The notes: generated by a model from the letters alone, not told the origin. A stretch of 64,000 bases of DNA from Bacteroidota bacterium (GCA_035516035.1 DATJAS010000044.1:9026-73025); one strand, 5' to 3'. Numbered from the stretch's first letter, positions 14,248-42,075 are shown. Translations and numbers: made by a program.

Positions 14248-15312
14248 ATGCCGACGACCCGGAGGACATTCCTGCAACGAGCCGGGGCGGCTGCCGCGGC
14301 GGCCGTCGCGGGTGCACCGCTGATCCCGTCCCTTCTCAAGTCCGCGCCGGCGCCATCGCCCGGCCCGATCGTCATCGCCAGCGGGAACGGCCTCGAGGCG
14401 GTGAAAAAGGCGATGCAGGTGATCCAGCAGGGGAACGACGCGCTGGATGCCGTCATCGCCGGCGTGAACATCAACGAGAACGATCCGAACGACACCAGCG
14501 TAGGGTACGGCGGCCTGCCCAACGAGGACGGCGTGGTCGAGCTGGATTCCGCCGTGATGCACGGCCCGAACCACATGGCCGGTGCGGTGGCGTCGCTCCG
14601 CAATATCAAGAACCCCTCGAAGGTCGCCCGCCTGGTCATGGAGCGCACGGACCACGTGCTGCTCGTGGGAGAGGGGGCGCTCCGGTTCGCGAAGGCGCAC
14701 GGCTTCGTGGAGGAGAACCTCCTCACCGAGAAGGCTCGGGAAGAGTGGCTGAAGTGGAAGGAGAACATGTCGAAGGAGGACGCCTGGCTGCCCGTGCATG
14801 CCGACACGACCCGCGCCGACCTTATCGGCGAGGCGTTCGCCCCGTACATGAAATACACGGGGACGATCCACTGCAGCGCCATCGACAGGAACGGCAACAT
14901 CTCCTGCGTCACCACCACGAGCGGGCTCGCGTGGAAGATCGCGGGGAGGGTCGGCGATTCGCCGATCGTGGGGGCGGGTCTTTACTGCGACAACGAAGTG
15001 GGTGCCGCGGGCTCGACCGGGCGCGGCGAGGCGAACCTGATCAGCTGCAACAGCGTGATGATCGTTGAATGGATGCGGGCGGGGAAGTCGCCCGAGGAAG
15101 CGTGCCTGTTGGCGTGCAAGCGCGTGGTGGAGAACAACAAGCAGCGGCGGCTGCAGGACGATCAGGGCCGGCCGACGTTTAATGTCTCGTTCTACGCGCT
15201 CAGCAGGAAGGGGGAGCGCGCCTGCGCGTCCGTTTGGGAGCCGAAGGAGTACGCGGTCCACGACGGCAGGGAGGCACGGCTTATCCCGGGTGCGTACCTG
15301 TACAGGAAATGA
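14248..15312 (+). CDS. N4-(beta-N-acetylglucosaminyl)-L-asparaginase / isoaspartyl peptidase (Ntn hydrolase, asparaginase-2 family)
   Basis: Tat-like signal RRTFLQRAGAAAAAAVAGAP. Autoprocessing and active-site region GTIHCSAIDRNGNISCVTTTSGLAWKIAGRVGDSPIVGAGLYCDNEVGAAGSTGRGE. Confidence 0.8.
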   Translation: MPTTRRTFLQRAGAAAAAAVAGAPLIPSLLKSAPAPSPGPIVIASGNGLEAVKKAMQVIQQGNDALDAVIAGVNINENDPNDTSVGYGGLPNEDGVVELDSAVMHGPNHMAGAVASLRNIKNPSKVARLVMERTDHVLLVGEGALRFAKAHGFVEENLLTEKAREEWLKWKENMSKEDAWLPVHADTTRADLIGEAFAPYMKYTGTIHCSAIDRNGNISCVTTTSGLAWKIAGRVGDSPIVGAGLYCDNEVGAAGSTGRGEANLISCNSVMIVEWMRAGKSPEEACLLACKRVVENNKQRRLQDDQGRPTFNVSFYALSRKGERACASVWEPKEYAVHDGREARLIPGAYLYRK

Positions 15313-21365: not shown

Positions 21366-21868
21366 CTACTTCTGGGCTTTGGCGGTCTCCCGGAAGAACC
21401 CCATCATCCCCGCGGAGGGGGGTGTGTGACCCATCTGCCTCATGAGCGTTACCACCTGCGCCCTGTGGTACGTCGAGTGATCGACCACGTGCTGCAGTGC
21501 GTCGCCGTATGCCTGTATGAACTGCTGCCCCGTGGACGTGGTCATGGGAAACGTCTCCTGGAGCTTCCTGTCCGTCAGCGTCCCGAGAAACTTCGCCATG
21601 TTGAACCCCGTCTCCTCCCACGTCTTTTTCACTTCGGCGAGCGTGGGGACGTCGGCAGGCTTGATCATTGCCTTATCGGGCGTGCCAACCATGCGGGAGA
21701 GCCACATCTTCTCCGCCCCCACCATGTGCGTGAGCGTCCCGTGGATGCTCCCGTGGCTCGCCTTCATGTCGCGCGTGAACTCTTCCGCCGGCAGGGCGGC
21801 GAGGGCGTCGAATATCCGGTTCGATGCCCAGGCATTGAACGCGGTCAGCCGTTTGATGTCCTGCAGCG

Positions 21869-21872
<4 letters not shown>
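21366..21872 (-). CDS. DinB/YfiT-like (DinB_2) metal-dependent hydrolase family protein
   Basis: HGSIHGTLTHMVGAEKMW and YHRAQVVTLMRQMG His-containing helices. Length is 168 aa. Confidence 0.65.
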
Positions 21873-27384: not shown

Positions 27385-29217
27385 TCATTCCAAAATCCTC
27401 ATAATTCCCTCAATTCGGCCCATTGGGGCTGAAAGCTGGACTCCAGCCACATTTCCCTTAATATGGTGGTACGTTTCCCGCGCGATTTTGACCCCTTCTG
27501 CAAACCCCTCTTCTTTCGTCGTCGTTTTCCTCATTCTCTCCATAATCTCCGGGGGCACAGATGCGCCCGGAACCTCGTTGTTCATGAACTCCGCGTTTCT
27601 GTATGAGACCAGCGGCCATATGCCGCAGATCAGCGGCACATTCACCCCTTCGATCCTCTTCATGAACTCCTCGAGTATGCGAATGTCGAACACGGGCTGC
27701 GTGATTACGTACTCGGCCCCCGCTTCGATCTTCCATTGGAGCCGCCTCAGCTCTTCGTCGAGATTGATCGCCCCCGGGTTCACGCCGACGCCGATCGAGA
27801 ATCCGGTCGGATCGCCGATAGGGTTCCCGGCCAGGTCGAGCCCGTGGTTGAGGCGGTTGATGACGTTTGTCAAACCGATCGCGTCCACGTCGAACACGGC
27901 GGTGGCGCTCGGGTAATTCCCCAGCTTCGGCGGGTCACCCGTGATGGCCAGGATATTCCTCAGGCCCAGCGCCCACGCCCCAAGGAGATCGGATTGCATC
28001 CCGATCACGTTCCGGTCCCGGCAGGCAATGTGGAGCACGGTTTCGATGCCCACGTCCCTCTGGATGATCGACGCCATCGCCAGCGCGGACATCCGCGCGG
28101 AGGCCCGCGGTCCGTCGGGAATATTGATGGCATCGATGCCGAACTGGTGGAGCCGCCGCGCCTTTTCCACCTCGCGCGCGGGTGAGACCCCCTTCGGGGA
28201 GACCAGCTCTGTCAGGACAACAAACTCTCCCCTGACGAGCTTCGTTGCGAAGCGGGACTTCTCCGTCTTCTGGAAGACGCGTACCGCCTCAGGCGCCTTG
28301 ACCTCGAAACTGACCCCTTTCATGTCCATCCGCTTCACGGGCTGGAGAGCCCGAACGGCCCGCCGGATCGCGCGGATATGGTCGGGATTCGTTCCGCAGC
28401 ACCCCCCGACGATCGTCGCGCCCGTCTGGATGAACCTCTTGGCATACTCCGCCATGTACTCCGGGGACGTCATGTAGATGTTCCGCCCGCCGATGTTCTG
28501 GGGGAGCCCCGCGTTCGGCTGCACCGACATCGGGAGCGCGGTCAGCGTCTTCAGCGTCTCGAGCGCGTCAAGCATGGCGCGGGGGCCGACCGAGCAATTG
28601 AGACCGATCGTGTCGATCCCGGAGCTCCCCACCCCCTTGACGAAACTCTCCAGCGTGGCGCCGCTGAGGAGGTTTCCGTCATCGTTAATCGTGACCTGGG
28701 CCATGAGCGGGATATCGGGGTTCAGTTCCCGCACGGCCTGAATCGCCTGCGCCAGCTCCGCCACGAGCGAGAACGTCTCCAGTATCACAATGTCCACACC
28801 TCCCTCCAGGAGGCCTGCGGCCTGCTCCCGGAATGCCTCGCGCGCCTCGCCGTAGGAGAGCTTGCCGAGGGGCTCGATCTGGACACCGAGGGGACCCATC
28901 GACCCGGCCACGAGCACCTGGTCTCCGGCTGCAGCACGGGCGAGCTGCGCCCCTTTCACGTTGATATCCCTGACGCGTGGCTCCAGCCCGTGGGGGGCGA
29001 GCTTGAACCGGTTTGCGCCGAACGTGTTCGTCTCGATGACGTCCGCCCCCGCCCCGATGTAATCGCGGTGCACCTCCGAGACGATGTCAGGGTTCGTGAG
29101 GTTTAGCTCGTCGAAACAGGTGTTGATGTAGATCCCCTTCTGGTAGAGGTACGTGCCTACCCCTCCGTCGAAGACGAGGACTTCGTTACTCTGGAGCCGT
29201 TCCCTGAAGCCTTTCAT
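27385..29217 (-). CDS. bifunctional homocysteine S-methyltransferase / 5,10-methylenetetrahydrofolate reductase
   Basis: N-terminal Hcy-binding domain with Zn-site motifs GLNCSVGP and GGCCGTNPDHI. The C-terminal MTHFR domain carries FVVLTELVSPKG and AITGDPP. Confidence 0.85.
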   Translation of the reverse strand: MKGFRERLQSNEVLVFDGGVGTYLYQKGIYINTCFDELNLTNPDIVSEVHRDYIGAGADVIETNTFGANRFKLAPHGLEPRVRDINVKGAQLARAAAGDQVLVAGSMGPLGVQIEPLGKLSYGEAREAFREQAAGLLEGGVDIVILETFSLVAELAQAIQAVRELNPDIPLMAQVTINDDGNLLSGATLESFVKGVGSSGIDTIGLNCSVGPRAMLDALETLKTLTALPMSVQPNAGLPQNIGGRNIYMTSPEYMAEYAKRFIQTGATIVGGCCGTNPDHIRAIRRAVRALQPVKRMDMKGVSFEVKAPEAVRVFQKTEKSRFATKLVRGEFVVLTELVSPKGVSPAREVEKARRLHQFGIDAINIPDGPRASARMSALAMASIIQRDVGIETVLHIACRDRNVIGMQSDLLGAWALGLRNILAITGDPPKLGNYPSATAVFDVDAIGLTNVINRLNHGLDLAGNPIGDPTGFSIGVGVNPGAINLDEELRRLQWKIEAGAEYVITQPVFDIRILEEFMKRIEGVNVPLICGIWPLVSYRNAEFMNNEVPGASVPPEIMERMRKTTTKEEGFAEGVKIARETYHHIKGNVAGVQLSAPMGRIEGIMRILE

Positions 29218-29357
29218 TGATCAGTCGTGTTGTCTGTTGGCATGAGGTGGAGACATGATACGCATTTTCCGGTTCCTCCCAAAATGGCAGATTTCTTGAT
29301 TCTCCAGGCCGAAATCTCTATATATAGGCCCATGCTTCGTTCGCCTGTCCGGTCGTC

Positions 29358-30074
29358 ATGAACCGGGAATATCACACCTGGACGAGTCCCTCGCTGGGGC
29401 ACCAGATGGAGATCCTCGTCTTCGGCCACGCGGGGGTGCCCCTCCTCGTGTTCCCGACTTCGAAGGGAAGGTTCTTCGACTACGAGGAGAGGGGGATGGT
29501 AGGCGCGCTCGCCGGTCCGCTTGCTGGGGGGAGAGTCCAGCTTTTCTGCGTCGACAGCGTGGACGGTGAGAGCTGGTACAACTACGGAGCGCCCCCACGC
29601 GAGCGCGTGGTGCGCCACATGGCCTACGAGCGCTACCTGCTGGATGAGGTCTTCCCGTTTGCCTCCGGGAAGAACGGGAGGAATCGCCTGGCCGTCACCG
29701 GCTGCTCGTTCGGCGGCTACCACGCCGTCAACATCACGCTCCGCCATCCCGACCGGATCGGATCGTGCATCAGCCTGGGGGGCGCGTTCGACATCCGCCA
29801 GTTCATCGCCGGCTACTATGACGACGACTGCTATTTCAACAACCCGGTGGACTACCTCCCGGGCCTGACCGACGCCTGGTATCTTGACAGGCTCGCCCAT
29901 GACGTGACGATAATACTCGCCACCGGCGAGCACGACATCTGCCTCCAGGACAACATCCGCCTGGCGGGAATGCTGGACGCAAAGGGTTTGCCGCGCGTGC
30001 TCGACGTCTGGGGGGACGGAGCCGGGCACGACTGGCCCTGGTGGAGGAGCATGATCGCAAAATTCATCCCCTGA
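29358..30074 (+). CDS. putative esterase (alpha/beta hydrolase, esterase D/enterochelin-esterase-like)
   Basis: Nucleophile elbow GCSFGG (GxSxG) in a 238-aa protein with the putative-esterase family layout. Confidence 0.65.
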   Translation: MNREYHTWTSPSLGHQMEILVFGHAGVPLLVFPTSKGRFFDYEERGMVGALAGPLAGGRVQLFCVDSVDGESWYNYGAPPRERVVRHMAYERYLLDEVFPFASGKNGRNRLAVTGCSFGGYHAVNITLRHPDRIGSCISLGGAFDIRQFIAGYYDDDCYFNNPVDYLPGLTDAWYLDRLAHDVTIILATGEHDICLQDNIRLAGMLDAKGLPRVLDVWGDGAGHDWPWWRSMIAKFIP

Positions 30075-30109
30075 ATCATGCGCCGGCAAACACACATCAC
30101 GGAGCTCCC

Positions 30110-31240
30110 ATGAAGCGCATCGGCATACTCTTCGGCATGGAAAACACGTTCCCGGACGCCGTCGTCGCGCGCATCAACGAAACGTCGGGCGCCGTGAAAG
30201 CCGGGGCCGTGAAGCTCGGCGCCACGGACATGGAAGTGCCCTCCGGGTACGACCTGATTATCGACAGGATCTCGCATGACATCCCCTACTACAGGTCGTA
30301 CCTGAAAAACGCCGTGCTCCACGGCGCGATCGTCATCAACAACCCGTTCTGGTGGAGCGCCGACGACAAGTTCTTCAATTACTCGCTCGCGGCGCAGCTC
30401 GGCGTGGCCGTGCCGAAAACGGTGCTTCTCCCTTCGCACCAGCACCCGCCCGAGACGACGTCGCAATCGATGCGCAACCTCATCTACCCGCTCGACTGGA
30501 ACGCCGTCTTCCAGACGGTCGGCTTCCCGGCGTTTCTCAAGCCGCACAGTGGTGGGGGATGGAAGCACGTGTACAAAGTCGCGAACGAGCCGGAGTTCTT
30601 CGAAGCATACGATCGCACCGGCGACCTCGTCATGACGCTCCAGGAAGCGATCGAATTCGACGAATACTTCCGCTGTTACTGCATCGGACGGGAGAAGGTG
30701 CACATCATGCGGTACGACCCCCGCCGCCCGCACGAGGAGCGCTACGTGCGGGACGGGCCGCCCGTCGATGCGGCGCTCGAGCGGCGGATCACGGAGGACT
30801 GCCTCACGCTCAACCGCGCGCTCGGGTACGACCTGAACACGGTCGAATTTGCCGTGCGCGGCGGCATCCCCTACGCGATCGATTTCCTGAACCCTGCACC
30901 GGACGCGGACTATCATTCCGTGGGGCCCGACAACTTCGCCTGGATCGTGGACGCCGTCGCGTCCATGGCGATAGCCCGCGTCACGGGGGGTGGAGGCACT
31001 CCGAGGGAGTACCGATGGGCGGAGTTCCTGAAAGGGACCGCCTCCGAGGCGCCCGCGCAGAAGGAACCCGCTCCCCACAAAAGCTCTGCGGAGAACCCGC
31101 CACGGGAAGGATCCGCTGCCCGCAAAAGCTCCGCGGAGAATCCGCTCCGGGAAGAATCCTCCGTGCGCAAAAGCTCAGCGGCTAAACCGACCCACCGTAA
31201 ACCCGCCCCGCGCAAGTCGCCGGGGAAGAAGAAGCCATGA
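30110..31240 (+). CDS. ATP-grasp family ligase (RimK/glutathione-synthetase-like) with repetitive basic C-terminal tail
   Basis: MKRIGILFG... pre-ATP-grasp and ATP-grasp layout (FPAFLKPHSGGGWKHVYKV). The tail is (RKSSAENPxRE)n. It overlaps the next gene by 4 nt. Confidence 0.65.
   Translation: MKRIGILFGMENTFPDAVVARINETSGAVKAGAVKLGATDMEVPSGYDLIIDRISHDIPYYRSYLKNAVLHGAIVINNPFWWSADDKFFNYSLAAQLGVAVPKTVLLPSHQHPPETTSQSMRNLIYPLDWNAVFQTVGFPAFLKPHSGGGWKHVYKVANEPEFFEAYDRTGDLVMTLQEAIEFDEYFRCYCIGREKVHIMRYDPRRPHEERYVRDGPPVDAALERRITEDCLTLNRALGYDLNTVEFAVRGGIPYAIDFLNPAPDADYHSVGPDNFAWIVDAVASMAIARVTGGGGTPREYRWAEFLKGTASEAPAQKEPAPHKSSAENPPREGSAARKSSAENPLREESSVRKSSAAKPTHRKPAPRKSPGKKKP
31078..31200 (+). repeat. 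45-nt tandem repeat (about 2.7 copies) inside the ATP-grasp gene 3' end
   Basis: Copies at 31078-31122 and 31123-31167 are near-identical (caaaagctc.gcggagaa.ccgc...gggaag.atcc...). A third degenerate copy follows. Confidence 0.7.
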
Positions 31241-32346
31241 GCGGCCGGCCGACGTTCACGCTCGGGATCGAGGAGGAGTTCCAGACAGTCGACCCCGTCA
31301 CGCGGGATCTGCGCTCCCACATCCAGTCCCAGATCATCGCGCAGGGCAAGATGCGCCTCCAGGAGCGTGTCAAGCCCGAGATGCACGGCTCCGTGGTCGA
31401 GGTCGGCACAGGCATCTGCCACACGATCGCGGAGGCGCGCCAGGAAGTGTGCGAGCTGCGACGGAACATGGTGCGGCTCGCCGAGGAGAACGGCATCCGA
31501 CTTGCCGCCGCCGGCACACACCCGTTCGCCGACTGGAAAACGCAGGAGATATTCCCCGACGACCGCTACAGGGTGATCGTCGAGGATATGCAGCAGGTGG
31601 CGCGCGCAAACCTGATCTTCGGCCTCCACGTCCACGTCGGGATCGAAGACCGCGAGACGACCATACAGCTCATGAACGCCGCCCGGTATTTCCTGCCGCA
31701 CATCCTGGCGCTCTCCGTCAACTCCCCCTTCTGGAAAGGCTACAACACAGGGCTCAAGTCGTACCGGTGCAAGGTGTTCGACAAGTTCCCACGGACGAAC
31801 ATCCCCGACTATTTCCAGAGCTACGGCGAGTACGAGAACTTCGTCAACCTGCTCATCAAAACGCACTGCATCGACAACGCCAAGAAGATCTGGTGGGATC
31901 TCCGGCCCCACCCGTTTTTCGGGACGCTCGAGTTCCGGATCTGCGACATTCCCATGCGGGCCGACGAAACGATCGCGCTCGCCGCGCTCATGCAGGCGGT
32001 CGTCGTGAAGCTCTACAACCTCTACTCCGTGAACATGGGGTTCCGGCTCTACCGCCGCGCGCTTCTCATGGAGAACAAGTGGCGGGCGAGCAGGTACGGC
32101 ACAGAGGGGAAGTTAATTGACTTCGGGCGCCAGGAGGAGCTTCCGGCGCGAGAGCTGATCGGCGAGCTGCTGGAGTTCGTTGACGACGTCGTCGACGGCC
32201 TCGGGAGCCGGAAGGAGGTGGAGTACGTCCGGCAGATCCTCCAGGCGGGGACCGGCGCCGAGCGCCAGCTCCGCGTCTTCGAGAAAACTGGTGACCTCAA
32301 GGCGGTCGTCGACTACATTATTGAAGAGACTAAGTATGGATTGTAG
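31237..32346 (+). CDS. carboxylate-amine ligase, YbdK / glutamate-cysteine ligase family 2 (GCS2)
   Basis: Start MSGRPTFTLGIEEEFQTVDPVTRDL, plus GTHPFADW and LHVHVGIED. This is typical of YbdK-type gamma-glutamyl-cysteine-ligase-like enzymes. Confidence 0.8.
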   Translation: MSGRPTFTLGIEEEFQTVDPVTRDLRSHIQSQIIAQGKMRLQERVKPEMHGSVVEVGTGICHTIAEARQEVCELRRNMVRLAEENGIRLAAAGTHPFADWKTQEIFPDDRYRVIVEDMQQVARANLIFGLHVHVGIEDRETTIQLMNAARYFLPHILALSVNSPFWKGYNTGLKSYRCKVFDKFPRTNIPDYFQSYGEYENFVNLLIKTHCIDNAKKIWWDLRPHPFFGTLEFRICDIPMRADETIALAALMQAVVVKLYNLYSVNMGFRLYRRALLMENKWRASRYGTEGKLIDFGRQEELPARELIGELLEFVDDVVDGLGSRKEVEYVRQILQAGTGAERQLRVFEKTGDLKAVVDYIIEETKYGL

Positions 32347-32358
32347 CACCCGATCCCG

Positions 32359-32493
32359 GTCATTGCGAGGCCGCCGCAGGCGGCCGAAGCAATCCATGCC
32401 ATGCCACCGCTGTCATTGTGAGGAGCGCTTTTTGCGACGAAGCAATCTATGACAAGCCCCCGTCATTGCGAGCGAAGCGAAGCAATCCATGCC
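32359..32493. repeat. three tandem copies of the 'gtcattgcgag...gaagcaatcc(a/t)atg' intergenic repeat
   Basis: Units start at 32359, 32412 and 32462. The last unit's ...aatccATGcc supplies the ATG of the M29 peptidase gene at 32489. Spurious ORFs translate to DCFASLAMT / VIASEAKQS. Confidence 0.75.
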
Positions 32494-33511
32494 GACTGAT
32501 CTCCTGAACATCCCCCTCGACCCCGATCTCCTCCCCGGCGCGCACAACGCGATCGCGGTCTGCCTTGCGGTGCGTCCCGGAGAGCGGGTCACGCTGATCA
32601 CGGACGCGGCGTCTGAAGCAATCGGGGCCAGCATCTACCGGGAGATCCTGGGGGCGGGAGCGTCGTGCAGCGTCTTCCTCCTCGAGGACTTCGGGACGCG
32701 CCCCCACAAAACGATGCCAAGGGAAATCCTCGACGAGCTTGGCCGAAGCCAGGTGAGCGTGTACGCCGCCGTCGGCCAGCCGGGCGAGCTCGGGACGCGG
32801 ATGGAAATGACCCGCGTGGTGAGCGAGCGGAAGATCCGCCACGCCCACATGATCAACATCAACCGGCGCATCATGACCGAGGGGATGCGCGCCGACTTCC
32901 GTGCTGTCGATTCGCTCAGCGCGCGCGTGCTTGACGCCGTGCAGGGCGCCTCGCGCATCAGGGCGACGACGCCGCTGGGAACTGATATCACCGTGGATCT
33001 CAGTCCCTCTCTCCGCTGGGTGAAGACGAGCGGTCTCATCAGTCCCGATCACTGGGGAAACCTCCCCGGGGGAGAGATCTTCACGTGCCCGGGCGCGGTC
33101 GAGGGGACGTTCGTCGTGGACGGCGTGGTGGGGGACTATCTCTGCGCGAAGTACGGCGACCTTGCTGCCGCGCCCCTCACCGTGGAAATCCGTGGGAGCC
33201 GGCTCAAAAGCGCTCGCTCGGAGAACCGCGGCCTGGAGCGAGAGTTCTGGGAATACTGCCACGCGGACGGTGAGAGCGACCGGGTGGGGGAGTTCGCGAT
33301 CGGCACGAACCTCGCCGTGGATCACGTGATCGGACACATCCTGCAGGACGAGAAGATCCCCGGGGTGCACATCGCATTCGGCAACCCGGCGGGAGAGCAA
33401 ACGGGTGCAAATTGGACGTCGGGCGCACACATTGACGTCGTGGGAACGCGCTTCAGCATATGGGCGGACGAGAGGCAAATCATGTCGGACGGGAAGTTCG
33501 TGCTCTCATGA
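32489..33511 (+). CDS. aminopeptidase, M29 (AmpS/PepS thermophilic metalloprotease) family
   Basis: 340 aa. The N-terminal half fits M29 aminopeptidase topology. GNLPGGEIFTCP and EFAIGTN near the C-terminus are M29 hallmarks. Confidence 0.65.
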   Translation: MPTDLLNIPLDPDLLPGAHNAIAVCLAVRPGERVTLITDAASEAIGASIYREILGAGASCSVFLLEDFGTRPHKTMPREILDELGRSQVSVYAAVGQPGELGTRMEMTRVVSERKIRHAHMININRRIMTEGMRADFRAVDSLSARVLDAVQGASRIRATTPLGTDITVDLSPSLRWVKTSGLISPDHWGNLPGGEIFTCPGAVEGTFVVDGVVGDYLCAKYGDLAAAPLTVEIRGSRLKSARSENRGLEREFWEYCHADGESDRVGEFAIGTNLAVDHVIGHILQDEKIPGVHIAFGNPAGEQTGANWTSGAHIDVVGTRFSIWADERQIMSDGKFVLS

Positions 33512-33548
33512 GCTTCTCCGGGCGCTCACGCCACCAGGGGCACATTAG

Positions 33549-34736
33549 ATGATCAGCGAACTGCGAAGCGAATTCAACAGGCAGTGGACGCCGGAGCGGT
33601 ACCAGCGGCTCCTTGAGCGGCTCGACGCCCGCTGCGGCACGCATGTCGGATTCCGCGTGTGCGAGACCCCGATATTCATCCCCGGCCCGTTAATGCGCGC
33701 CATGGAGGAGGGTGGGCGGGAGATCATGGAGCAGCTCGCGGATAGCGCGGAATACCGCTCGGCCTCAGAAGCGGCGATACCGGAGCGCTACCGCGCCATG
33801 CGCGAGGACCCCCACCCGCTCTTTGCTGCCGTCGATTTCGGCATCGAGAGGACCCCCGATGGGAGGCTTCACCCCAGGCTGATCGAGCTTCAGGGGTTCC
33901 CCACGCTCTTCGCGTACCAGCCAGTGCTTTGCCAGGAGTACGGCGCGGTTTACGATATTTCTCCCGATCTCGCCCAGTACGCGCACGGAATAGACGGCGA
34001 GGCGTACGGCCGCCTGTTCCGGTCGGCTGTCCTGGGAAACCGCGCTCCCGAGAACGTCATCCTGATGGAGATCGACCCGCTGAAGCAGAAAACATTACCC
34101 GATTTCCTGTTGACAACGCGGCTCTGCGGCGTTGCAACCGTCAATATCAGGGAGATCGTGAGGAAAAAAAGGAGGCTCTACTACAAAAAGGGAGCAACAC
34201 TGGTTCCGATCGACCGTATCTACAACCGGGTGATTCCTGAGGACCTGGAGAGATCCGGAGCGCGCGCGCCGTTTGCGTTCTCCGAGGATATCGAGGTCGA
34301 GTGGGCCGGCCATCCCAACTGGTTTTTCCGCATGAGCAAGTTCTCGCTTCCCTTCATCGTCCACCCCGCGGTCCCCGAGACGCTCTTTCTCGATGCGGGG
34401 GCGTCGCGCATGGGGGACCCGCGTGAGTGGGTGCTCAAGCCCCTCTATTCCTTTGCCGGGAGCGGCGTGAAAGTCTCTCCTTCGCGTGCGGACATCGACG
34501 CGATCCCGCGCTCGAAACGGCGCGAGTACATACTCCAGAAGCGCGTGGAGTATGCTCCCGTGGTCGAGACTCCCGCGGGGGGGACGAAAGCGGAGGTGCG
34601 GATTCTCTATATCTGGACGGACCGGCCCGTGCCCGTCCTCAACCTTGTCCGGCTCGGACGCGGCGCCCAGATGGGGGTCGACCACAACAGGACGATGGAC
34701 TGGGTGGGCGGATCGGCCGGCTTCTGGACCGCATGA
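33549..34736 (+). CDS. glutathionylspermidine-synthase-like / ATP-grasp-like amidoligase family protein
   Basis: RLHPRLIELQGFPTLFAYQP resembles the LLEYNADTPT core of the GSP-synthase preATP-grasp family. The C-terminus has a GSGVKV...ILQKRVEY ATP-grasp-like strand. Family call is by recall only. Confidence 0.4.
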   Translation: MISELRSEFNRQWTPERYQRLLERLDARCGTHVGFRVCETPIFIPGPLMRAMEEGGREIMEQLADSAEYRSASEAAIPERYRAMREDPHPLFAAVDFGIERTPDGRLHPRLIELQGFPTLFAYQPVLCQEYGAVYDISPDLAQYAHGIDGEAYGRLFRSAVLGNRAPENVILMEIDPLKQKTLPDFLLTTRLCGVATVNIREIVRKKRRLYYKKGATLVPIDRIYNRVIPEDLERSGARAPFAFSEDIEVEWAGHPNWFFRMSKFSLPFIVHPAVPETLFLDAGASRMGDPREWVLKPLYSFAGSGVKVSPSRADIDAIPRSKRREYILQKRVEYAPVVETPAGGTKAEVRILYIWTDRPVPVLNLVRLGRGAQMGVDHNRTMDWVGGSAGFWTA

Positions 34737-34761
34737 TCACCATGACGAGGATAACTCACAC

Positions 34762-36687
34762 ATGACCGGAGACCCCATGAACCCGTTGCGCGATTTCACG
34801 CTCTGCCTTCTCGGACTCTCCCTGGCGGCGTCCACTGGCGCCGTCAGCCAGCAGGAACGGGACCGCTCGAAGATTCCCGAGAAGTACCGCTGGAATCTCG
34901 CCGACATCTATCCGGACGACGAGGCATGGGCGAAGGCTAAGGACGCATTCGTCGCGAAGATCGGCCCCGCGGACAAACCCGAAGGGGTGATGGAACAGTT
35001 CCGGGGAAAACTCGGCGAATCGCCGGCGACGCTTCTCGCCTGCCTCAACGGATCAAGCGACCTGGCAAAAGAATACGCGCGGCTTTCCGTGTACGCGAGC
35101 CTGCTCTCGGACCAGGATATCAGCATCGCGGCGAACGTCGAAAAGGTACAGACGATCGGCCAGGCGGGCTCGACGTTTGGGGCGAAGCTGTCGTTTATCG
35201 AGCCCGAGCTGCTTCAGGTAGGAAAGGAAAAGATTGAAGGCTTCATCGCGGCGGAGCCGAAGCTCGGGATCTACAAGCACTATCTCGAAGACGTCCTTCG
35301 CCGGAAGGCTCACACCGGGACGGCGAACGAGGAGAAGATCATTGCCGATGCCTCGCTTATGGCGGATGCGCCGAGCAACATGTACGGCGTCTTCTCCAAC
35401 GCGGACTTTCCGTTTCCGTCCGTGACGCTGAGCGACGGGAAGACCGTGAAGCTGGACAAGGCCGCGTTCGCGCTCTACCGGGCCGTGCCCAACCGCGACG
35501 ACAGGATGAAGGTGTTTGACGCATTCTTCGGGGCGATCGACAGGTACCGCGGGACATTCGGGACGCAGCTCTACGCCGAAGTCAAGAAGGATATGTTCTA
35601 CAAGTCCGCCCGCAAGTACGGTAGCTCGCTTGAGGTGGCCCTCGACGCCGACAATATCCCCGTGGCGGTGTACAAAGGACTGGTGAAGAGCGTCAATGAC
35701 AACCTGGCGACGTTCCACCGCTACCTGAAGCTCCGGGCCCGTATGCTGGGGGTCGATCAACTCCATTATTACGACCTCTATTCCCCCGTGGTGAAAAATA
35801 CTGATATCAACTACACCTACGAGGAGGCAGAGAAGCTGGTGCTTGCGTCGCTCGCGCCGCTCGGGGCGGACTACATCGCGGTGGCCAAAAAGGGGTTCGC
35901 CGACCGGTGGCTCGACGTCTACCCGAACACTGGGAAACGCTCCGGGGCGTATTCGCAGGGGGCTGCCTACGACGTCCATCCCTACATGCTCCTCAACTAC
36001 AACGGGAAGTACGACGACGTGAGCACGCTTGCCCACGAGTTCGGCCACACGATGCACAGCTACCTGGCGAACACGTCACAGCCGTGGCCCACGTCCCAGT
36101 ACTCGACGTTCGTCGCGGAGGTCGCCTCCACGTTCAACGAGGCGCTCCTGATGGATTACATGCTCAAGACGGTAAAGGACGACGACGTGCGCCTCTCGAT
36201 GCTGGGGAGTTATCTCGACGGGATGAAGGGGACGCTCTTCCGGCAGACGCAGTTCGCCGAGTTCGAGCTCGCGATCCACGATTCCGCCGAGAACGGCGTC
36301 TCACTTACCGGGGACATGCTCGACGCGCTCTACGAGAAGATCACGCGCCGCTACTACGGGCACGACCAGGGGATCTGCATCGTCGACAGTAGCGTCCGCG
36401 CCGAGTGGGCCTACATCCCCCACTTCTACTACAACTTCTACGTCTTCCAGTATGCGACGTCGGTGACGGCGAGCTCCGCGCTCTCGGAGCAGGTGCTCGG
36501 CGGCGACAAGGGGGTCACGAAAAAGTACCTGGAGATGCTCCACTCCGGCGGCTCTGACTACCCCATTGAGCTGCTGAAGAGAGCGGGGATCGACATGACC
36601 ACCCCGGTGCCGTTCCAGCTTGCGATGAAGAAGATGAACAGAGTGATGGACGAGATGGAGAAGATACTGGAAAAGAAGAAGCACTAA
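34762..36687 (+). CDS. pepF: oligoendopeptidase F (M3B family), secreted
   Basis: Signal peptide after MTGDPMNPLRDFTLCLLGLSLAAS. Zinc site HEFGHTMHSY. Start moved to 34762; the upstream track extension overlaps the preceding gene. Confidence 0.8.
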   Translation: MTGDPMNPLRDFTLCLLGLSLAASTGAVSQQERDRSKIPEKYRWNLADIYPDDEAWAKAKDAFVAKIGPADKPEGVMEQFRGKLGESPATLLACLNGSSDLAKEYARLSVYASLLSDQDISIAANVEKVQTIGQAGSTFGAKLSFIEPELLQVGKEKIEGFIAAEPKLGIYKHYLEDVLRRKAHTGTANEEKIIADASLMADAPSNMYGVFSNADFPFPSVTLSDGKTVKLDKAAFALYRAVPNRDDRMKVFDAFFGAIDRYRGTFGTQLYAEVKKDMFYKSARKYGSSLEVALDADNIPVAVYKGLVKSVNDNLATFHRYLKLRARMLGVDQLHYYDLYSPVVKNTDINYTYEEAEKLVLASLAPLGADYIAVAKKGFADRWLDVYPNTGKRSGAYSQGAAYDVHPYMLLNYNGKYDDVSTLAHEFGHTMHSYLANTSQPWPTSQYSTFVAEVASTFNEALLMDYMLKTVKDDDVRLSMLGSYLDGMKGTLFRQTQFAEFELAIHDSAENGVSLTGDMLDALYEKITRRYYGHDQGICIVDSSVRAEWAYIPHFYYNFYVFQYATSVTASSALSEQVLGGDKGVTKKYLEMLHSGGSDYPIELLKRAGIDMTTPVPFQLAMKKMNRVMDEMEKILEKKKH

Positions 36688-36734
36688 AAAAAAAATTAAT
36701 TCAATAACGCGTTGAATGCAGAGCCGACTATTGA

Positions 36735-37955
36735 CTACCTGACTTTGAACAAATACCGGCCAGAGGGCTGATCGCATCCGACATACACCTTGCCGTCAGC
36801 ACTGATTGCGGGATCGGAATCGATGTCGGGGACAGTTCCGTCCAGGTTTCTGAGACTCAACCGGAACTTTGGCGTCCCGTTTGGATAAAGCGCCATGAAG
36901 TTGACGCTATCTGCCGCTGTAAGGCCCGTCGACCATCCGAAATACAGGGTGCCATCACGGTCGATTGCCGGAACCGACTCGAGATTCGCCACGCTCGGCA
37001 GTTGATAATTCCACTTGGGGTTACCTGCATAATCAAATGCAAAGACTCCCTGATTACCAGCAATGTAGATCGATCCGTCCCATCCAATTATAGGATTGAG
37101 TTCGTAAAGATAACCCCAGTTAATCCCCCGCGCTACCCACCGGACAGCACCCGACGGAGTGAGCGAATAAAGGGCGTGCTGGCTGTCTCCGATGTAGATA
37201 TTCCCATCATTATCAACGGCCGGATCTGAGCCGCCAATCACAAATCTCCACCTGAGCGTCCCGCTCGTATCCAACGCATAGAGCGCCTTTAGCCCGGTTG
37301 CATAAATGGTGGCCCCGTCGGGTGACATGGTAGGAGAAGTCCCGAGTGGATCGGTGCTGTCGGGTTTCACTTTCCACCGCAGTGACCCATCCTTACGAAT
37401 TGCATAAAGCGAATCTGATGCAAAGAACACCGTCCCTCCGTCCCTGGAAATTGTTGGCGTGAATGGCGTGATCCCGTTGGGTGCGAATGGATACTCCCAA
37501 TTGAGATTGCCACTGCGATCGTGGGACACAAGGAACAGTCCTGCCCATCCGTAGATTGAGCCGTCACTCGAGATCACCAATGAACCGCTGGACGAGCCTT
37601 CGGCGGCTTGCCACTCCACGCTTCCCGTTTGAGAGACGGCAGTCAGTGAACCAGAAAATGTGCTGAAATATACCGAGCCGTCTACATCGATAGCCGGCGA
37701 GCAATACACAGCACTTCCTGCATCTACACGCCATTCCATAGCCCCCGATTGTGGCCCGGCATAGGAGCTTCTGCCCGTGTGTTGCGGGTCGTGTAGCCGC
37801 ATCGGCCACGCTGAACTTGCGAGGCCTGGCCACGGGATGTTTACTTGCTGCTTCGTGACCCAATTGTTGCTGGGGCCCGGTTCAACAATCGTTCTTTTCT
37901 TGGTGCAAGAGAAGGAAGAGAGGAGCAAAAACAGAAGAAGCAAAGTCCGTTTCAT
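36735..37955 (-). CDS. PQQ-like beta-propeller repeat lipoprotein
   Basis: Lipoprotein signal MKRTLLLLFLLLSSFSC. Repeated GS(V/I)Y...G(S/T)L.A. propeller blades. GC is lower (~53-55%) than the surrounding genome. Confidence 0.6.
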   Translation of the reverse strand: MKRTLLLLFLLLSSFSCTKKRTIVEPGPSNNWVTKQQVNIPWPGLASSAWPMRLHDPQHTGRSSYAGPQSGAMEWRVDAGSAVYCSPAIDVDGSVYFSTFSGSLTAVSQTGSVEWQAAEGSSSGSLVISSDGSIYGWAGLFLVSHDRSGNLNWEYPFAPNGITPFTPTISRDGGTVFFASDSLYAIRKDGSLRWKVKPDSTDPLGTSPTMSPDGATIYATGLKALYALDTSGTLRWRFVIGGSDPAVDNDGNIYIGDSQHALYSLTPSGAVRWVARGINWGYLYELNPIIGWDGSIYIAGNQGVFAFDYAGNPKWNYQLPSVANLESVPAIDRDGTLYFGWSTGLTAADSVNFMALYPNGTPKFRLSLRNLDGTVPDIDSDPAISADGKVYVGCDQPSGRYLFKVR

Positions 37956-38204
37956 GTAGCCGCCTCACTCGTCTCGCGTGAGAGTTTCGATCTGCGAACG
38001 ACAATCCTGCCCGCCACGGCGACAGAGAAACGCTCCCCACGAGTGACTTGAATCTAGCCTCCCCCCCAGCCACAGTCAATTGCGCGTGTTGGGTGTCATG
38101 CTGAGCGGAGAAAAACCTGTCATTCTCAATACCATCAGCGGAGCCGATTGACATTCGGCGGAGAGGGGGATATCTTCAGGAAAATCATCTGGGATGGAAG
38201 AGAA

Positions 38205-38774
38205 ATGAAGATCATTGGGATGATTCTCGCTGTAGCGCTCTGCACAGCCAACGCACGCAATCAGGATCTCCCGGCAGCCGCGAGAAATGCTCTTGATACC
38301 AGATTCTCGCACTGGCATTTCCGACCCGCTCACATCCCGAGTCCGTGCGACACTCAGAGCGCCAACCCAGTTCTTCTCACCGCGGTTCAGAAATGCAATC
38401 TCAACGACGATCAGACACCAGATTATGCGGTGGTGGTGACCACAGGTGATGATTTGCAGATGATGGAGTACTTCCTTGCCCTCGTCTCGAACAGTGACAG
38501 CTTCGATGTGTTTGTCATCGATTCAGCCCGAAACCATTTTGGCGCAGGGGAGCGGTTACTGCAAATTGTGCACGCCGGTGATTCCACCGCCTTTTTTGAC
38601 GACGAAGAGGAAGTCGCCAGGTATGGCAAACTCGTCGACGACAACATGATGATTGTCTTTCCGACTGACGCGCTTGAGACCTCGCCAGGATGTGAGGCAC
38701 ACTACGGAAGGTTGGAGTACGATGTGTACGTCTTCATTCGTGGGAGATTCTTGTCATTTGGTGCGGCTGACTAG
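38205..38774 (+). CDS. hypothetical secreted protein (190 aa)
   Basis: Signal peptide MKIIGMILAVALCTANA. No family recognised. Lies in the low-GC region. Confidence 0.45.
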   Translation: MKIIGMILAVALCTANARNQDLPAAARNALDTRFSHWHFRPAHIPSPCDTQSANPVLLTAVQKCNLNDDQTPDYAVVVTTGDDLQMMEYFLALVSNSDSFDVFVIDSARNHFGAGERLLQIVHAGDSTAFFDDEEEVARYGKLVDDNMMIVFPTDALETSPGCEAHYGRLEYDVYVFIRGRFLSFGAAD

Positions 38775-38828
38775 TGAGGGGCTGGGTCTGGTTGGAAAGA
38801 GGATTGAGTCAATTAGGAGGAGTCACAT

Positions 38829-39101
38829 ATGGTACCGAAGCGCCGCCAGCCGACGCACCCGGGTGAAATCCTCAAGGAAGAGTTCCTCCGTCCGATGGGC
38901 ATGAGCCAGGTTGAGTTGGCCCGGCGTATGGGTGTTCCAATCCAGCGGGTAAACACGCTGATCAACGGGAAACGCGATATGACCGCTGAGACAGCCATCC
39001 TGCTGTCTCGTGTACTAAAGACCACGTCCGAATTCTGGATGAATCTCCAGGTCGCGGTTGATCTTTTGAGAGCTTCCCGGAGCATCGGGCATACAGCATA
39101 G
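38829..39101 (+). CDS. higA: HigA-family antitoxin (XRE-type HTH)
   Basis: HPGEILKEEFLRPMGMSQVELARRMGVPIQRVNTLINGKRDMTAETAILLSRVL is the canonical HigA antidote HTH. No higB-like ORF lies adjacent. Confidence 0.8.
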   Translation: MVPKRRQPTHPGEILKEEFLRPMGMSQVELARRMGVPIQRVNTLINGKRDMTAETAILLSRVLKTTSEFWMNLQVAVDLLRASRSIGHTA

Positions 39102-39244
39102 CACTCAGCGGCCGGAGGTTAGCAGCAAGCCAATTTCTCCAAGTCAATCCCTGCGCGATATTGAACGGCGAACAAGAAAACTGCGGAACTACGAATGGCG
39201 ACGGGTCGGGCCGGAGGGGCAGAACTCTGAATGCTGAATTCTGA

Positions 39245-40780
39245 ATGACGAATACAAAAAGCGGGGCGGTTCCTGGTTCTCAGACGAATCTGCTCATGCG
39301 CAAAGGTAGGATGATAGTTGCTCTGTCCGTGACACTTTCCGTGTGCCTCATTTGCTTGCTTCTGAAGTATTTGCACCCTCTCGAAGAGATTTCTGCCACT
39401 GCCAACAAAGCCGGCAAGGCGACGAGCATCGATTCGACAAAGAAACTCCTTATCTCCACAACAGGATTTCCGGTTGACTCAATTCGGCACGATAGCCTCA
39501 ATGGCCACGCCGTCACGCATTTGACGATACGCCAACCTGAACGAGTACCTGTTGCACATCTCCTCTTCGCAGACACGTCAAACGCTTTGAAGGTGGGGAT
39601 ATACGATCTCAGTTGGCGAACCGGAGAGATAACCCACCTCTTTGATTTGCCGGACGGGGCTCAATTCCCACCTGCAGGTCTTCAAGTGAACTTCAGAGGT
39701 GTGGCAACTTATTTTGCGATGGACTCCTGACGGACCACCGTATTGACATTACGGAGTTCTGGAGGTACAAAAACATTCCCACCACCTGGCCGTGATCAAG
39801 AGATCTGGTCATTTGACTATGATTCCCGCGAAATAACTCTCAAGGAATCGGACCAATACCCCGCTGCCTTGCTTTCACCGCATGGATCTGATGTTGTAAC
39901 TTGGTGGAATCGAACTGTTGCTCTTGTAGATACCGAGCACGGCACACTTGAAAAAGAATTTCATATCTCACGGCTGATCAGCGGCGAAGCCGGGCTCCGC
40001 GAGACGTACGTTGACTCCTTCAAAGTAAGTGGAGCACTAAGCGACCACAACGAGGTATTTAATGTTGTGGCCTGGGACCCGGTTCGGCCATCCACCATTT
40101 TCGTGTCGAACTTCTTTTCAGATCAACTCACCAATGGATCAAGAGGACTCTGGACATATGATCTAGACACGCACACTTTCACGCTGGTCGATGCGTTGGT
40201 TGAACAGTTTCTATCCATCTCAACTGATGGAGAATATCTGCTGTACACCAACAATGATGAAACGTGTTGCGCCGGAGTGAACTACACCGACAATCAGCTG
40301 ATCTTACTGGATCTCCTTCAGCATTCCAGGGTCATTTTGTATGACGAATTCGTCCGATACGGCAACGAGAACAAGGCAGAAGACCATGTACCCGTTTCAG
40401 CTTTCTTCTCGCCAAACAACATGTTGTTTGCTACAACAATCGAGGACTTTCAAGATCGGAATATGCTATCGTCAGCGGGTCCGCGTCGGGAGGGAGTCCC
40501 AGACAGCATGGTTGGAGGCAAGCACATTCTGTACTCTCGTCTGGGTGGGTCCACCAGTAACGAAGTTCCTGATTGTGAATTAGTCGGTTGGGCGGATTCT
40601 GTGCACATGCTGATGAGGACCTTCAAAGAGGAGTGGTTGCCCAGAGGCCGGGCTGCCGGTGATTTTGGATGGAAGCAGCAAGAAGGGCCCTTGCAGTCTC
40701 TGGATATCCGCGATGGAAAGGTAATTCGGGTCTTTGAAAAACCGGTCCGCTTTCTACAGGTCGATTGGGAGTGGGATTAA
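39245..40780 (+). pseudogene. membrane-anchored beta-propeller-like protein interrupted by a single in-frame TGA (39728-39730)
   Basis: ORFs 39245-39730 and 39743-40780 are in the same frame, separated only by one TGA plus 12 nt. The second ORF has no ATG (track used TTG). The first has an N-terminal TM segment (IVALSVTLSVCLICLLL). GC ~47-50%. Confidence 0.5.
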
Positions 40781-40994
40781 GTCCCAGATCGGACATCTGA
40801 GAGAGAACCCTTTGCACTCCTCACGCTAGCAGTGTCAAATGAAAGAGGCGAAAGTGAGACACAGGGCCCCCACGTCACAGGATACAAGGACCATGACAAG
40901 GTGGTAACCCTATTGAACGTACAGGATTCCTCGTAACAGCTGTCGAAGGTAGGGTAAGTCCATAAGCTATTGAACGTGCTGCGGCATAAAATAA

Positions 40995-41027
40995 GAAGAG
41001 TCATCGGATACTGCCCGATGACTCTTC
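40995..41027 (-). terminator. rho-independent terminator for the PFOR/DHOD-like operon
   Basis: Perfect 13-bp stem gaagagtcatcgg/ccgatgactcttc with a 7-nt loop. On the minus strand it is followed by cttattttat, ~58 nt after the DHOD-like gene stop. Confidence 0.65.
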
Positions 41028-41085
41028 TCGTAATATCGGGAAGGCAAGTGGAGACTAATCCGCCTGTTCCCCTTCATCATCAAGA

Positions 41086-42075
41086 CTACTTGTAGCTGTT
41101 CAGCGCCTTCATGTAATTCGCCCGCTCGAACGAGGAGGGGTCGGCGGCCGATTTCTGGCTCATGCTTCCCTTCATCTGGGCCACCGATTCGTACTCGTGT
41201 TCCTCCATCCACTTCGCCAGGTCGGCAAGCACGTCCTTGATCCTCCCCGGCCCGTGTTTCAGGAGCGCCGAGCACATCATCGTCACGTCCGCCCCCGCCA
41301 TGAGCATCTTCAGCACGTCCTGCGCGCCGTGGATACCGCTCGTGGCGGCGAGGCTCGCCTTGATCTTCCCGTGCAGGATCGCCACCCAGCGGAGCGGCAA
41401 CCTCATCGCCTGCGGCGTGCTCAGGATGACGTTCGGCGTCACTTCCAGCGTCTCGAGATCGATGTCCGGCTGGTAGAACCGGTTGAACAGGACCAGTCCG
41501 TTTGCCCCCGCCTTGTCAAGCCGCAGGGCCATGTTGGCCATCGAGCTGAAGAACGGGCTGAGCTTCATCGCGACCGGGATCTTCACCGTGCTCTTGACCG
41601 CGCGGAGGACTTCCAGGTAGCGTTCCTCGACCGCCTTGCCGTCCTGCGCGGGATCGGCCGCGACGTGGTAGACGTTCAGCTCCAGCGCGTCCGCCCCCGC
41701 CTCTTCGATCTTCTTCGCGTATTTCGTCCAGCCGCCAGTCGAGACGCCGTTGATGCTCCCGATCACGGGGATCGAGAGCGCCCGCTTCGCGTTGTGGATG
41801 TGCTCGACGTACTCTTCGGGGCCGAGGTTGTAGTCCTCCGCCTCCGGGAAATACGTCAGCGCCTCCGCAAAGCTTTCGGTTCCCTGCGCCAGGTAGTGGT
41901 TCAGCTCGGCGGTCTCGTGCTCTATCTGCTCCTCGAAGAGGGAATAGACCACGATTGCCGCGGCGCCGAACTCCTCCAGCCGCCTCATGCTGTCCACGGT
42001 GTGCGAGAGGGGCCCGGCCGAGGGGACGATCGGGTTCTTGAGCTTGAGGCCCAGGTATGATGTTGTCAGGTCCAT
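41086..42075 (-). CDS. dihydroorotate dehydrogenase-like protein (DHOD/DHPD class 1 family)
   Basis: [43 protein letters not shown]... TIM-barrel flavoprotein pattern of class 1 DHODs. Directly downstream of PFOR. Confidence 0.6.

Follow-up and report, generated by a model that had tools for sequence, protein, structure and literature searches.

The window analysed here, a stretch of 64,000 nucleotides from a Bacteroidota genome (GCA_035516035.1 DATJAS010000044.1:9026-73025), carries a conserved plus-strand cluster in which three amide-bond ligases of different families stand together with a serine esterase and a divergent M29-like metallohydrolase. With evenly divided confidence, we propose that this cluster makes, independently of non-ribosomal peptide synthetases (NRPSs), and turns over a small peptide or amine conjugate that probably contains a gamma-glutamyl group. 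This proposal builds on which genes are present and how their products fold, on catalytic residues that are intact, and on a cluster that is both conserved and modular. An original prediction, made from the window alone, had already named three ligases of different families and suggested synthesis and recycling of a small amide-linked compound; the first point was borne out and the second is still the best reading, but its assignment of the recycling to a secreted oligoendopeptidase, PepF, was not upheld.

That prediction placed the system in five consecutive plus-strand open reading frames (ORFs) at 30110-36687. Their coordinates were correct and the family calls essentially right, but the borders of the system were wrong, with the first gene omitted and the last one wrongly included. 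Six consecutive plus-strand genes occupy 29358-36687, and these are listed below together with one repeat:

29358-30074, plus strand: esterase, 238 aa, PF00756; first gene of the conserved unit
30110-31240, plus strand: gene 1, RimK/LysX-like ATP-grasp ligase, 376 aa, with a disordered basic C-terminal tail
31060-31181, plus strand: tandem repeat in the gene 1 tail, 45 bp (15 aa), 2.7 copies
31237-32346, plus strand: gene 2, GCS2/YbdK-type carboxylate-amine ligase, 369 aa, PF04107 and NF010039
32489-33511, plus strand: gene 3, divergent M29 (AmpS/NicX-fold) metallohydrolase, 340 aa, PF02073
33549-34736, plus strand: gene 4, ATP-grasp ligase of the GspS/eukaryotic glutathione-synthetase fold, 395 aa
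34762-36687, plus strand: PepF (gene 5), oligoendopeptidase F, M3B, 641 aa, TIGR00181; outside the conserved unit

The unit is redrawn here to run from the esterase through gene 4 (29358-34736), with PepF excluded. From the esterase to PepF the successive gaps are 35, -4 (an ATGA overlap), 142, 37 and 25 nt, a tight spacing that probably reflects co-transcription, and a terminator scan found no terminator-like site on the plus strand downstream of the esterase gene. No signal peptide was called in the five products of the unit from the window. A scan for riboswitches and RNA leaders gave no Rfam match in the window or upstream of the esterase, and none of the six proteins matched a PADLOC defence-system model.

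Conservation of the unit was determined from two anchors. Around gene 4, 80 loci with 10-kb flanks, one genome per species, were compared by tblastn and all-against-all ORF clustering; nearly all come from Acidobacteriota (Terriglobia, Bryobacterales), and two bear other, possibly mis-binned labels. An independent scan around gene 1 yielded 80 soil metagenome loci, where counts were taken among the loci long enough to have room for each gene. The partners were recovered as follows, with identities given relative to the window:

Gene 3: 76/80 gene 4-anchored loci (53-62% identity); 44/48 gene 1-anchored metagenome loci with room
Gene 2: 74/80 gene 4-anchored loci (62-77% identity); 53/58 gene 1-anchored metagenome loci with room
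Gene 1: 70/80 gene 4-anchored loci (54-68% identity)
Gene 4: 30/36 gene 1-anchored metagenome loci with room
Esterase: 63/80 gene 4-anchored loci (48-62% identity); 55/66 gene 1-anchored metagenome loci with room

Genes missing from the gene 4 loci mostly fall at truncated contigs, and no other ORF family reaches more than 34/80 of these loci. At the metagenome loci with room, each partner is present in 83-92%. Moreover, the order esterase-gene 1-gene 2-gene 3-gene 4 is collinear in Acidobacteriota and Bacteroidota, and because this same order is kept in two phyla whose proteins are 50-77% identical, the clustering lies far beyond chance. The genes are not scattered in other genomes, whether the loci are collected by gene 4 or by gene 1.

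The unit splits into two modules, the esterase with gene 1 on one side and GCS2 (gene 2) with a hydrolase and gene 4 on the other. The esterase is kept with gene 1 at loci where genes 2-4 are absent (L107, L139, L144), and genes 2-3-4 occur without the esterase-gene 1 pair at L056, L063 and L065. In a distant clade of gene 4 from Cytophagales and Chitinophagaceae (~40% identity), a protein of the class-I glutamine amidotransferase (GATase) type takes the position of gene 3, and at two of its loci (L084, L169) the Cys-His-Glu triad is intact (ICHSFQ, QFHPE). The full set of esterase, gene 1, GCS2, GATase and gene 4 is found in Emticicia (L084, Emticicia sp. 21SJ11W-3, CP092074.1) and at L169, the GATase and gene 4 stand alone at L167 and L168, and Sediminibacterium (L083) has an M42 aminopeptidase with the GATase and gene 4. 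Given these partial sets, together with the loci that hold genes 2-3-4, the pair of gene 4 and an amidohydrolase is irreducible; it forms the minimal core, often joined by GCS2 and by the esterase with gene 1. Every ATP-grasp ligase is matched by a hydrolase of its own, the esterase for gene 1 and an M29-like or GATase/C26-like protein for gene 4; the place of second hydrolase, which had been given to PepF, belongs to the upstream serine esterase.

Some loci hold additional genes. Insertions in Acidobacteriota clusters (M48 peptidase, PIN toxin, FG-GAP, SnoaL) were judged lineage-specific and not core: in Candidatus Sulfotelmatobacter an M48 (Ste24/HtpX-like) membrane metalloprotease lies between the esterase and gene 1 (L010, 3678-5027; L025, 4318-5742), an ORF between the same two genes in L045 (4646-6001) is putatively M48 by position and size, and a PIN toxin or FG-GAP protein is inserted there at other loci. 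A Ser/Thr kinase and PIG-L downstream in Acidobacteriota occur at only 31-34/80 loci and were read as lineage synteny. In Sediminibacterium L083, a 150-aa protein of no family and a weakly UbiA-like membrane protein (6643-8012) lie upstream of the M42-GATase-gene 4 trio, and a MiaE-like gene follows it (11215-11829).

Gene 2 was rightly called a YbdK/GCS2 enzyme that overlaps gene 1 by 4 nt. It matches PF04107 with 231 bits (cut-off 21) over profile positions 1-290 of 291, and NF010039 with 551 bits against a cut-off of 371. Its score with the glutamate-cysteine ligase model NF010043 is 379 bits, below the cut-off of 409, and other such models lie further below their cut-offs. The characterised GCS2 enzymes known to us (E. 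coli YbdK, Haloferax GshA and mycobacterial EgtA) produce gamma-glutamyl-cysteine.

Gene 4 has an ATP-grasp fold of the GspS/eukaryotic glutathione synthetase (GS) type, and its closest structural match is E. coli YgiC. Further fold matches, with their scores, are:

Nematode GS-like effectors: 24
Mfla_0391: 23.6
E-64 ligase Cp1B: 22.7
Trypanothione synthetase: 22.6
Glutathione/homoglutathione synthetases: 20-21.5

No Pfam domain, PF03738 included, was matched by gene 4 at E <=0.01, and sequence searches of the PDB gave nothing useful for genes 1, 3 and 4 as single sequences and only noise for the gene 4 profile. When gene 4 was compared with YgiC by hhalign, VLKPLYSFAGSGV was aligned with VVKPIFSREGANV, which is only the Lys/Gly-rich ATP-binding motif (E 0.0018, probability 15%). 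The family of gene 4 comprises at least 1221 clusters at 50% identity and has no Pfam model. Gene 4 had been likened to glutathionylspermidine synthases, which holds for the fold but not for the sequence; it is a member of a large, undescribed family of GspS-fold ligases with a fixed hydrolase partner.

Four homologues of gene 4 (P0241, P0243, P0255, P0260) carry an N-terminal extension of 150-190 residues with a signal-peptide-like start and no Pfam domain, and another, P0247 (870 aa), is fused to a sodium:solute symporter (SSF). These extensions and the fusion may be gene-call artefacts, and they were set aside as Rosetta-stone clues, the extensions for their signal-peptide-like character and lack of a Pfam domain, and the symporter fusion as a single case. 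In cultured Tunturiibacter gelidiferens X5P2 (L076), the gene 4 homologue at 10001-11200 has none of the four partners within 10 kb on either side, in which this locus differs from almost all other Acidobacteriota loci.

For gene 1, the ATP-grasp fold is closest to RimK/LysX, with RimK, ArgX and LysX as top fold matches. No Pfam match was found, RimK and ATP-grasp domains included, and a partial match (65-223) to TIGR00768 (RimK) gives 22.3 bits, which does not reach the cut-off of 143.4; the Emticicia homologue (L084) scores 19.5 bits against the LysX cut-off of 276. Neither the curated models of the prokaryotic glutathione synthetase GshB nor the Pfam GSH-S domains recovered the protein. Thus, in its first description as a RimK/GshB-like ATP-grasp ligase with a repetitive basic tail, the RimK-like fold and the tail were confirmed, but the likeness to GshB was not. 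The last ~65 residues are modelled as disordered and are rich in Lys and Arg (17 K/R versus 7 D/E in the last 71 residues), and the repeat within them obtains a Tandem Repeats Finder score of 144. Since most homologues have a shorter basic tail and none has the long repeat, the basic tail is a trait of the gene 1 family and the long repeat is lineage-specific. Clustering of ORFs of at least 90 aa revealed no rpsF or LysW-like gene linked to the cluster.

The M29 call for gene 3 was borne out in the form of a divergent M29-like protein. Gene 3 matches PF02073 with 36.2 bits against 27, only over profile positions 204-350 of 406 (the C-terminal half), and has no NCBIfam match; its profile matches AmpS 1zjc (E 5e-6) and NicX 7cn3 (E 7e-4). 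Residues E196, E268 and H294 are invariant and aligned to the AmpS motifs EEVF, GEVA and CHLAIG, and H314/D316 form an invariant H-x-D. The aligned positions of AmpS 1zjc we take to be its metal ligands, a Glu/Glu/His/His/Asp set.

The esterase matches PF00756 with 35.3 bits (gathering cut-off 22), and its nucleophile elbow GCSFG (S117), D193 and H224 are invariant in the family as a Ser-Asp-His triad. No subfamily could be assigned, the enterochelin esterase model giving only 21 bits against a cut-off of 222. Opposite this gene, on the minus strand, a 293-aa shadow ORF (29214-30095) is longer than the real gene and masks it; it has no family match and was rejected in favour of the plus-strand esterase, the called and conserved gene. 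Such high-GC shadow ORFs are common across the region and also appeared as minus-strand clusters in the ORF clustering. Divergent from the esterase lies a fusion of homocysteine S-methyltransferase (PF02574) and methylenetetrahydrofolate reductase (PF02219; 27385-29217, minus strand), which is also beside the esterase in the Bacteroidota locus L082, and not in Acidobacteriota. This neighbour makes a tie between the cluster and sulfur amino-acid metabolism possible.

In the mechanism that we propose, whatever concerns the sequence of reactions, gamma-glutamyl chemistry or the nature of the product is deduced from the enzyme families. Each of the three ligases would use ATP to activate a carboxylate, which in the ATP-grasp enzymes becomes an acyl-phosphate, and couple it to an amine. 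In concert, the three would build a small peptide or peptide-amine conjugate without the ribosome or an NRPS. RimK/LysX-type enzymes add a residue to a gamma- or alpha-glutamyl carboxylate, and enzymes of the GS, GspS and TryS type attach an amino acid or polyamine to a C-terminal carboxylate. The GCS2 enzyme probably forms a gamma-glutamyl bond, like its characterised relatives, gene 4 probably performs an extension of the latter kind, like glutathione synthetase, GspS and YgiC, and gene 1 probably adds a further residue. The paired hydrolases would cleave the bond made by the matching ligase, which may serve turnover, editing or removal of a gamma-glutamyl handle, as with the amidase domain of E. 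coli GspSA. The expectation that no member is a canonical glutathione, cyanophycin or polyglutamate enzyme was supported: no ligase reaches the threshold of the curated glutathione or RimK/LysX models that it matched, and no NCBIfam match to a cyanophycin or polyglutamate enzyme was obtained.

A more specific form of this proposal is speculative, and we regard it as doubtful: the product could be a gamma-glutamyl peptide-amine conjugate of low molecular weight that has so far escaped recognition, such as a thiol akin to glutathionylspermidine, and be a major metabolite in the cytoplasm of soil Acidobacteriota and of many Bacteroidota. A gamma-glutamyl dipeptide would then come from GCS2, the third residue and the amine would come from the two ATP-grasp ligases, and the esterase and the M29/GATase-type amidase would handle the turnover of thioester and amide. 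The esterase superfamily (PF00756) includes S-formylglutathione hydrolase. DinB/DinB_2 genes were seen near the cluster in the window (~21370-21870, minus strand, beside mutS) and in L082 (14148-14738, plus strand, 3 kb downstream of gene 4); some proteins of the DinB superfamily are thiol-dependent S-transferases, and these neighbours are no more than a weak hint. Another gene of the window, an Asparaginase_2 (isoaspartyl peptidase/plant-type asparaginase) at 14248-15312 on the plus strand, ~14 kb upstream, is not ligase-linked in other genomes.

Several points weigh against a small conjugate as the product. We know of no recorded substrate, product or phenotype for any of the five families, and the scores of all three ligases stay under the cut-offs of characterised equivalogs. 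RimK, ArgX and LysX, the leading fold matches of gene 1, act on protein C-termini, not on metabolites. The GATase-like partner could supply ammonia to gene 4 for an amidation, instead of performing hydrolysis, and the signal-peptide-like extensions on some gene 4 homologues are odd for an ATP-dependent cytoplasmic ligase. Finally, neither ORF clustering nor Rfam revealed a transporter, regulator, riboswitch or precursor-supply gene that is conserved with the cluster and might point to its chemistry.

The main alternative, also raised in the original prediction, is that the cluster performs reversible tagging of the C-terminus of a protein or carrier peptide, which we consider unlikely. Genes 1 and 4 would add residues or a polyamine cap, the esterase and the M29-like protein would remove them, and its basic tail would let gene 1 dock on a target that is acidic or bound to RNA. 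Such a system would be comparable to RimK/RimB with ribosomal protein S6, or to the carrier-protein pathways of LysW/LysX/LysK. In its favour, RimK, ArgX and LysX, the best fold matches of gene 1, are all ligases of protein C-termini. To our knowledge, all characterised GCS2 enzymes make small molecules, which argues against this alternative. The pairing of ligases with hydrolases suits a write/erase logic, disordered K/R-rich tails recur in the gene 1 family, and YgiC, the closest structural match of gene 4, is a peptide-spermidine ligase (PMC12568646). However, no conserved small ORF and no carrier or target gene was found in the cluster, with its intergenic gaps of 35-142 nt, or beside it, and the ORF clustering gave no further conserved family; moreover, gene 1 falls well short of the cut-off for RimK, as does its Emticicia homologue of that for LysX.

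It is rather improbable that the cluster serves catabolism or salvage. In such a route GCS2 would transiently gamma-glutamylate an amine or amino acid, which would next be modified and finally freed of its gamma-glutamyl group by the M29-like or GATase/C26-like hydrolase, and no new end-product would accumulate. Transient gamma-glutamylation has precedents in the Puu pathway for putrescine (PuuA/PuuD) and, for the synthesis of ergothioneine, in EgtA/EgtC. GCS2 adjoins a hydrolase that in the sister clade is of the class-I GATase/C26 type with an intact triad, and the symporter fusion of one gene 4 homologue suggests an imported substrate. Yet two further ATP-dependent ligases would make catabolism expensive, the cluster has no conserved oxidoreductase or aminotransferase, and the GATase occurs with gene 4 in many genomes without GCS2.

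The arrangement first predicted, a five-gene system from gene 1 to PepF with the secreted peptidase recycling the product, is very hard to maintain. PepF itself was identified correctly as an M3B oligoendopeptidase F, probably secreted, with 559.6 bits to TIGR00181 (equivalog cut-off 490.55), the HEXXH motif (HEFGH) at residue 425 and a signal-peptide-like N-terminus. On the plus strand that they share, 25 nt separate it from gene 4; the scan showed no terminator-like site in this gap, and PepF is probably co-transcribed with gene 4 in this organism. However, PepF was present at 0/80 Acidobacteriota loci and 0/26 metagenome loci with room for it. In the related Bacteroidota locus L082, the esterase and genes 1-4 are collinear and PepF lies downstream of gene 4; because five unrelated genes intervene there, the position of PepF next to gene 4 in the window is a chance feature of local synteny. 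Its N-terminus would also place PepF outside the cytoplasm, in which the ligases would work, and on both grounds it was rejected as a member of the system and as the recycler of the product. The five genes first proposed are not the set, as PepF is never ligase-linked outside this lineage and the upstream esterase had been missed. Nor are the ligases flanked by two peptidases, since the M29-like gene sits inside the cluster and is paired with gene 4.

Across window positions ~36000-42000 the GC content drops from ~0.63 to 0.53-0.56, and this region, which may be acquired DNA, holds a BamB-like beta-propeller gene (36735-37955, minus strand), an HTH_3 regulator and ORFs of no family (38148-38774, 39245-39730 and 39743-40780).

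The chance adjacency of unrelated housekeeping genes is scarcely credible, for although the families also occur elsewhere (gene 4 alone at L076, L033 and L066, and the esterase with gene 1 alone at L107), it is contradicted by the retention of order and strand in two phyla at about 85-95% of loci and by an overlap of the translational-coupling type.

Operons that link distinct ATP-grasp and COOH-NH2 (GS/GCS-like) ligases with peptidases have been associated with successive peptide ligations, according to the passages on them in PMC4431377, which cites Iyer et al. 2009. The linkage in those multi-ligase operons is of the same kind as in our cluster, and that account reads them as making metabolites, storage peptides or protein tags (PMC4431377). 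The literature within reach of full-text searches contained no publication on the present gene combination, which Iyer et al. 2009 may already list.

YgiC/YjfC and the fungal Cp1B of the E-64 pathway, the best structural matches of gene 4, are stand-alone GspS/GS-fold ligases that form an amide between an amine and a carboxylate, the latter supplied by a peptide C-terminus or by a dicarboxylic acid; YgiC and YjfC ligate peptides to spermidine, and Cp1B, which has the same fold, is an amide ligase for small molecules (PMC12568646). Compared with YgiC, gene 4 shows at most a sequence likeness at motif level, and its partners differ, ygiC adjoining ygiB and tolC.

The cluster differs from the glutathione, glutathionylspermidine and trypanothione pathways (GshA, GshB, GspSA, TryS) in that gene 2 belongs to GCS2/YbdK and falls below the glutamate-cysteine ligase cut-offs, and gene 4 has ~11-13% identity to their enzymes and no PF03738 match. 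The amidase of GspSA is a CHAP domain, whereas here it is a separate M29-like or GATase-like protein, and an esterase is added.

RimK/RimB and LysW-LysX-LysK resemble the cluster in that a RimK-clade ligase is paired with a hydrolase removing the added group; however, no S6, LysW or acceptor gene is linked here, and there are two further ligases. The osmoprotectant N-acetylglutaminylglutamine amide (NAGGN) is a small dipeptide-type solute made by an operon that combines an ATP-grasp ligase, an amidotransferase and a metallopeptidase. Its trio of Ngg (ATP-grasp/GNAT), AsnO amidotransferase and M42 is similar in outline to the M42, GATase and gene 4 of Sediminibacterium L083, but the M42 protein of L083 has 38 bits against a NAGGN model cut-off of 398, no GNAT domain is present, and in the window the cluster is built with genes for an M29-like protein, GCS2 and the esterase.

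In soil, Acidobacteriota and Bacteroidota rank among the most abundant bacteria. A widespread and well-conserved operon of this kind points to a missing piece of their core metabolism, for which a redox buffer, an osmolyte, a metal ligand and a protein tag are candidates. The five-gene set is now precise and includes the esterase, and Emticicia is a cultured carrier for genetics; the three ligases may also be useful as biocatalysts for amide-bond formation.

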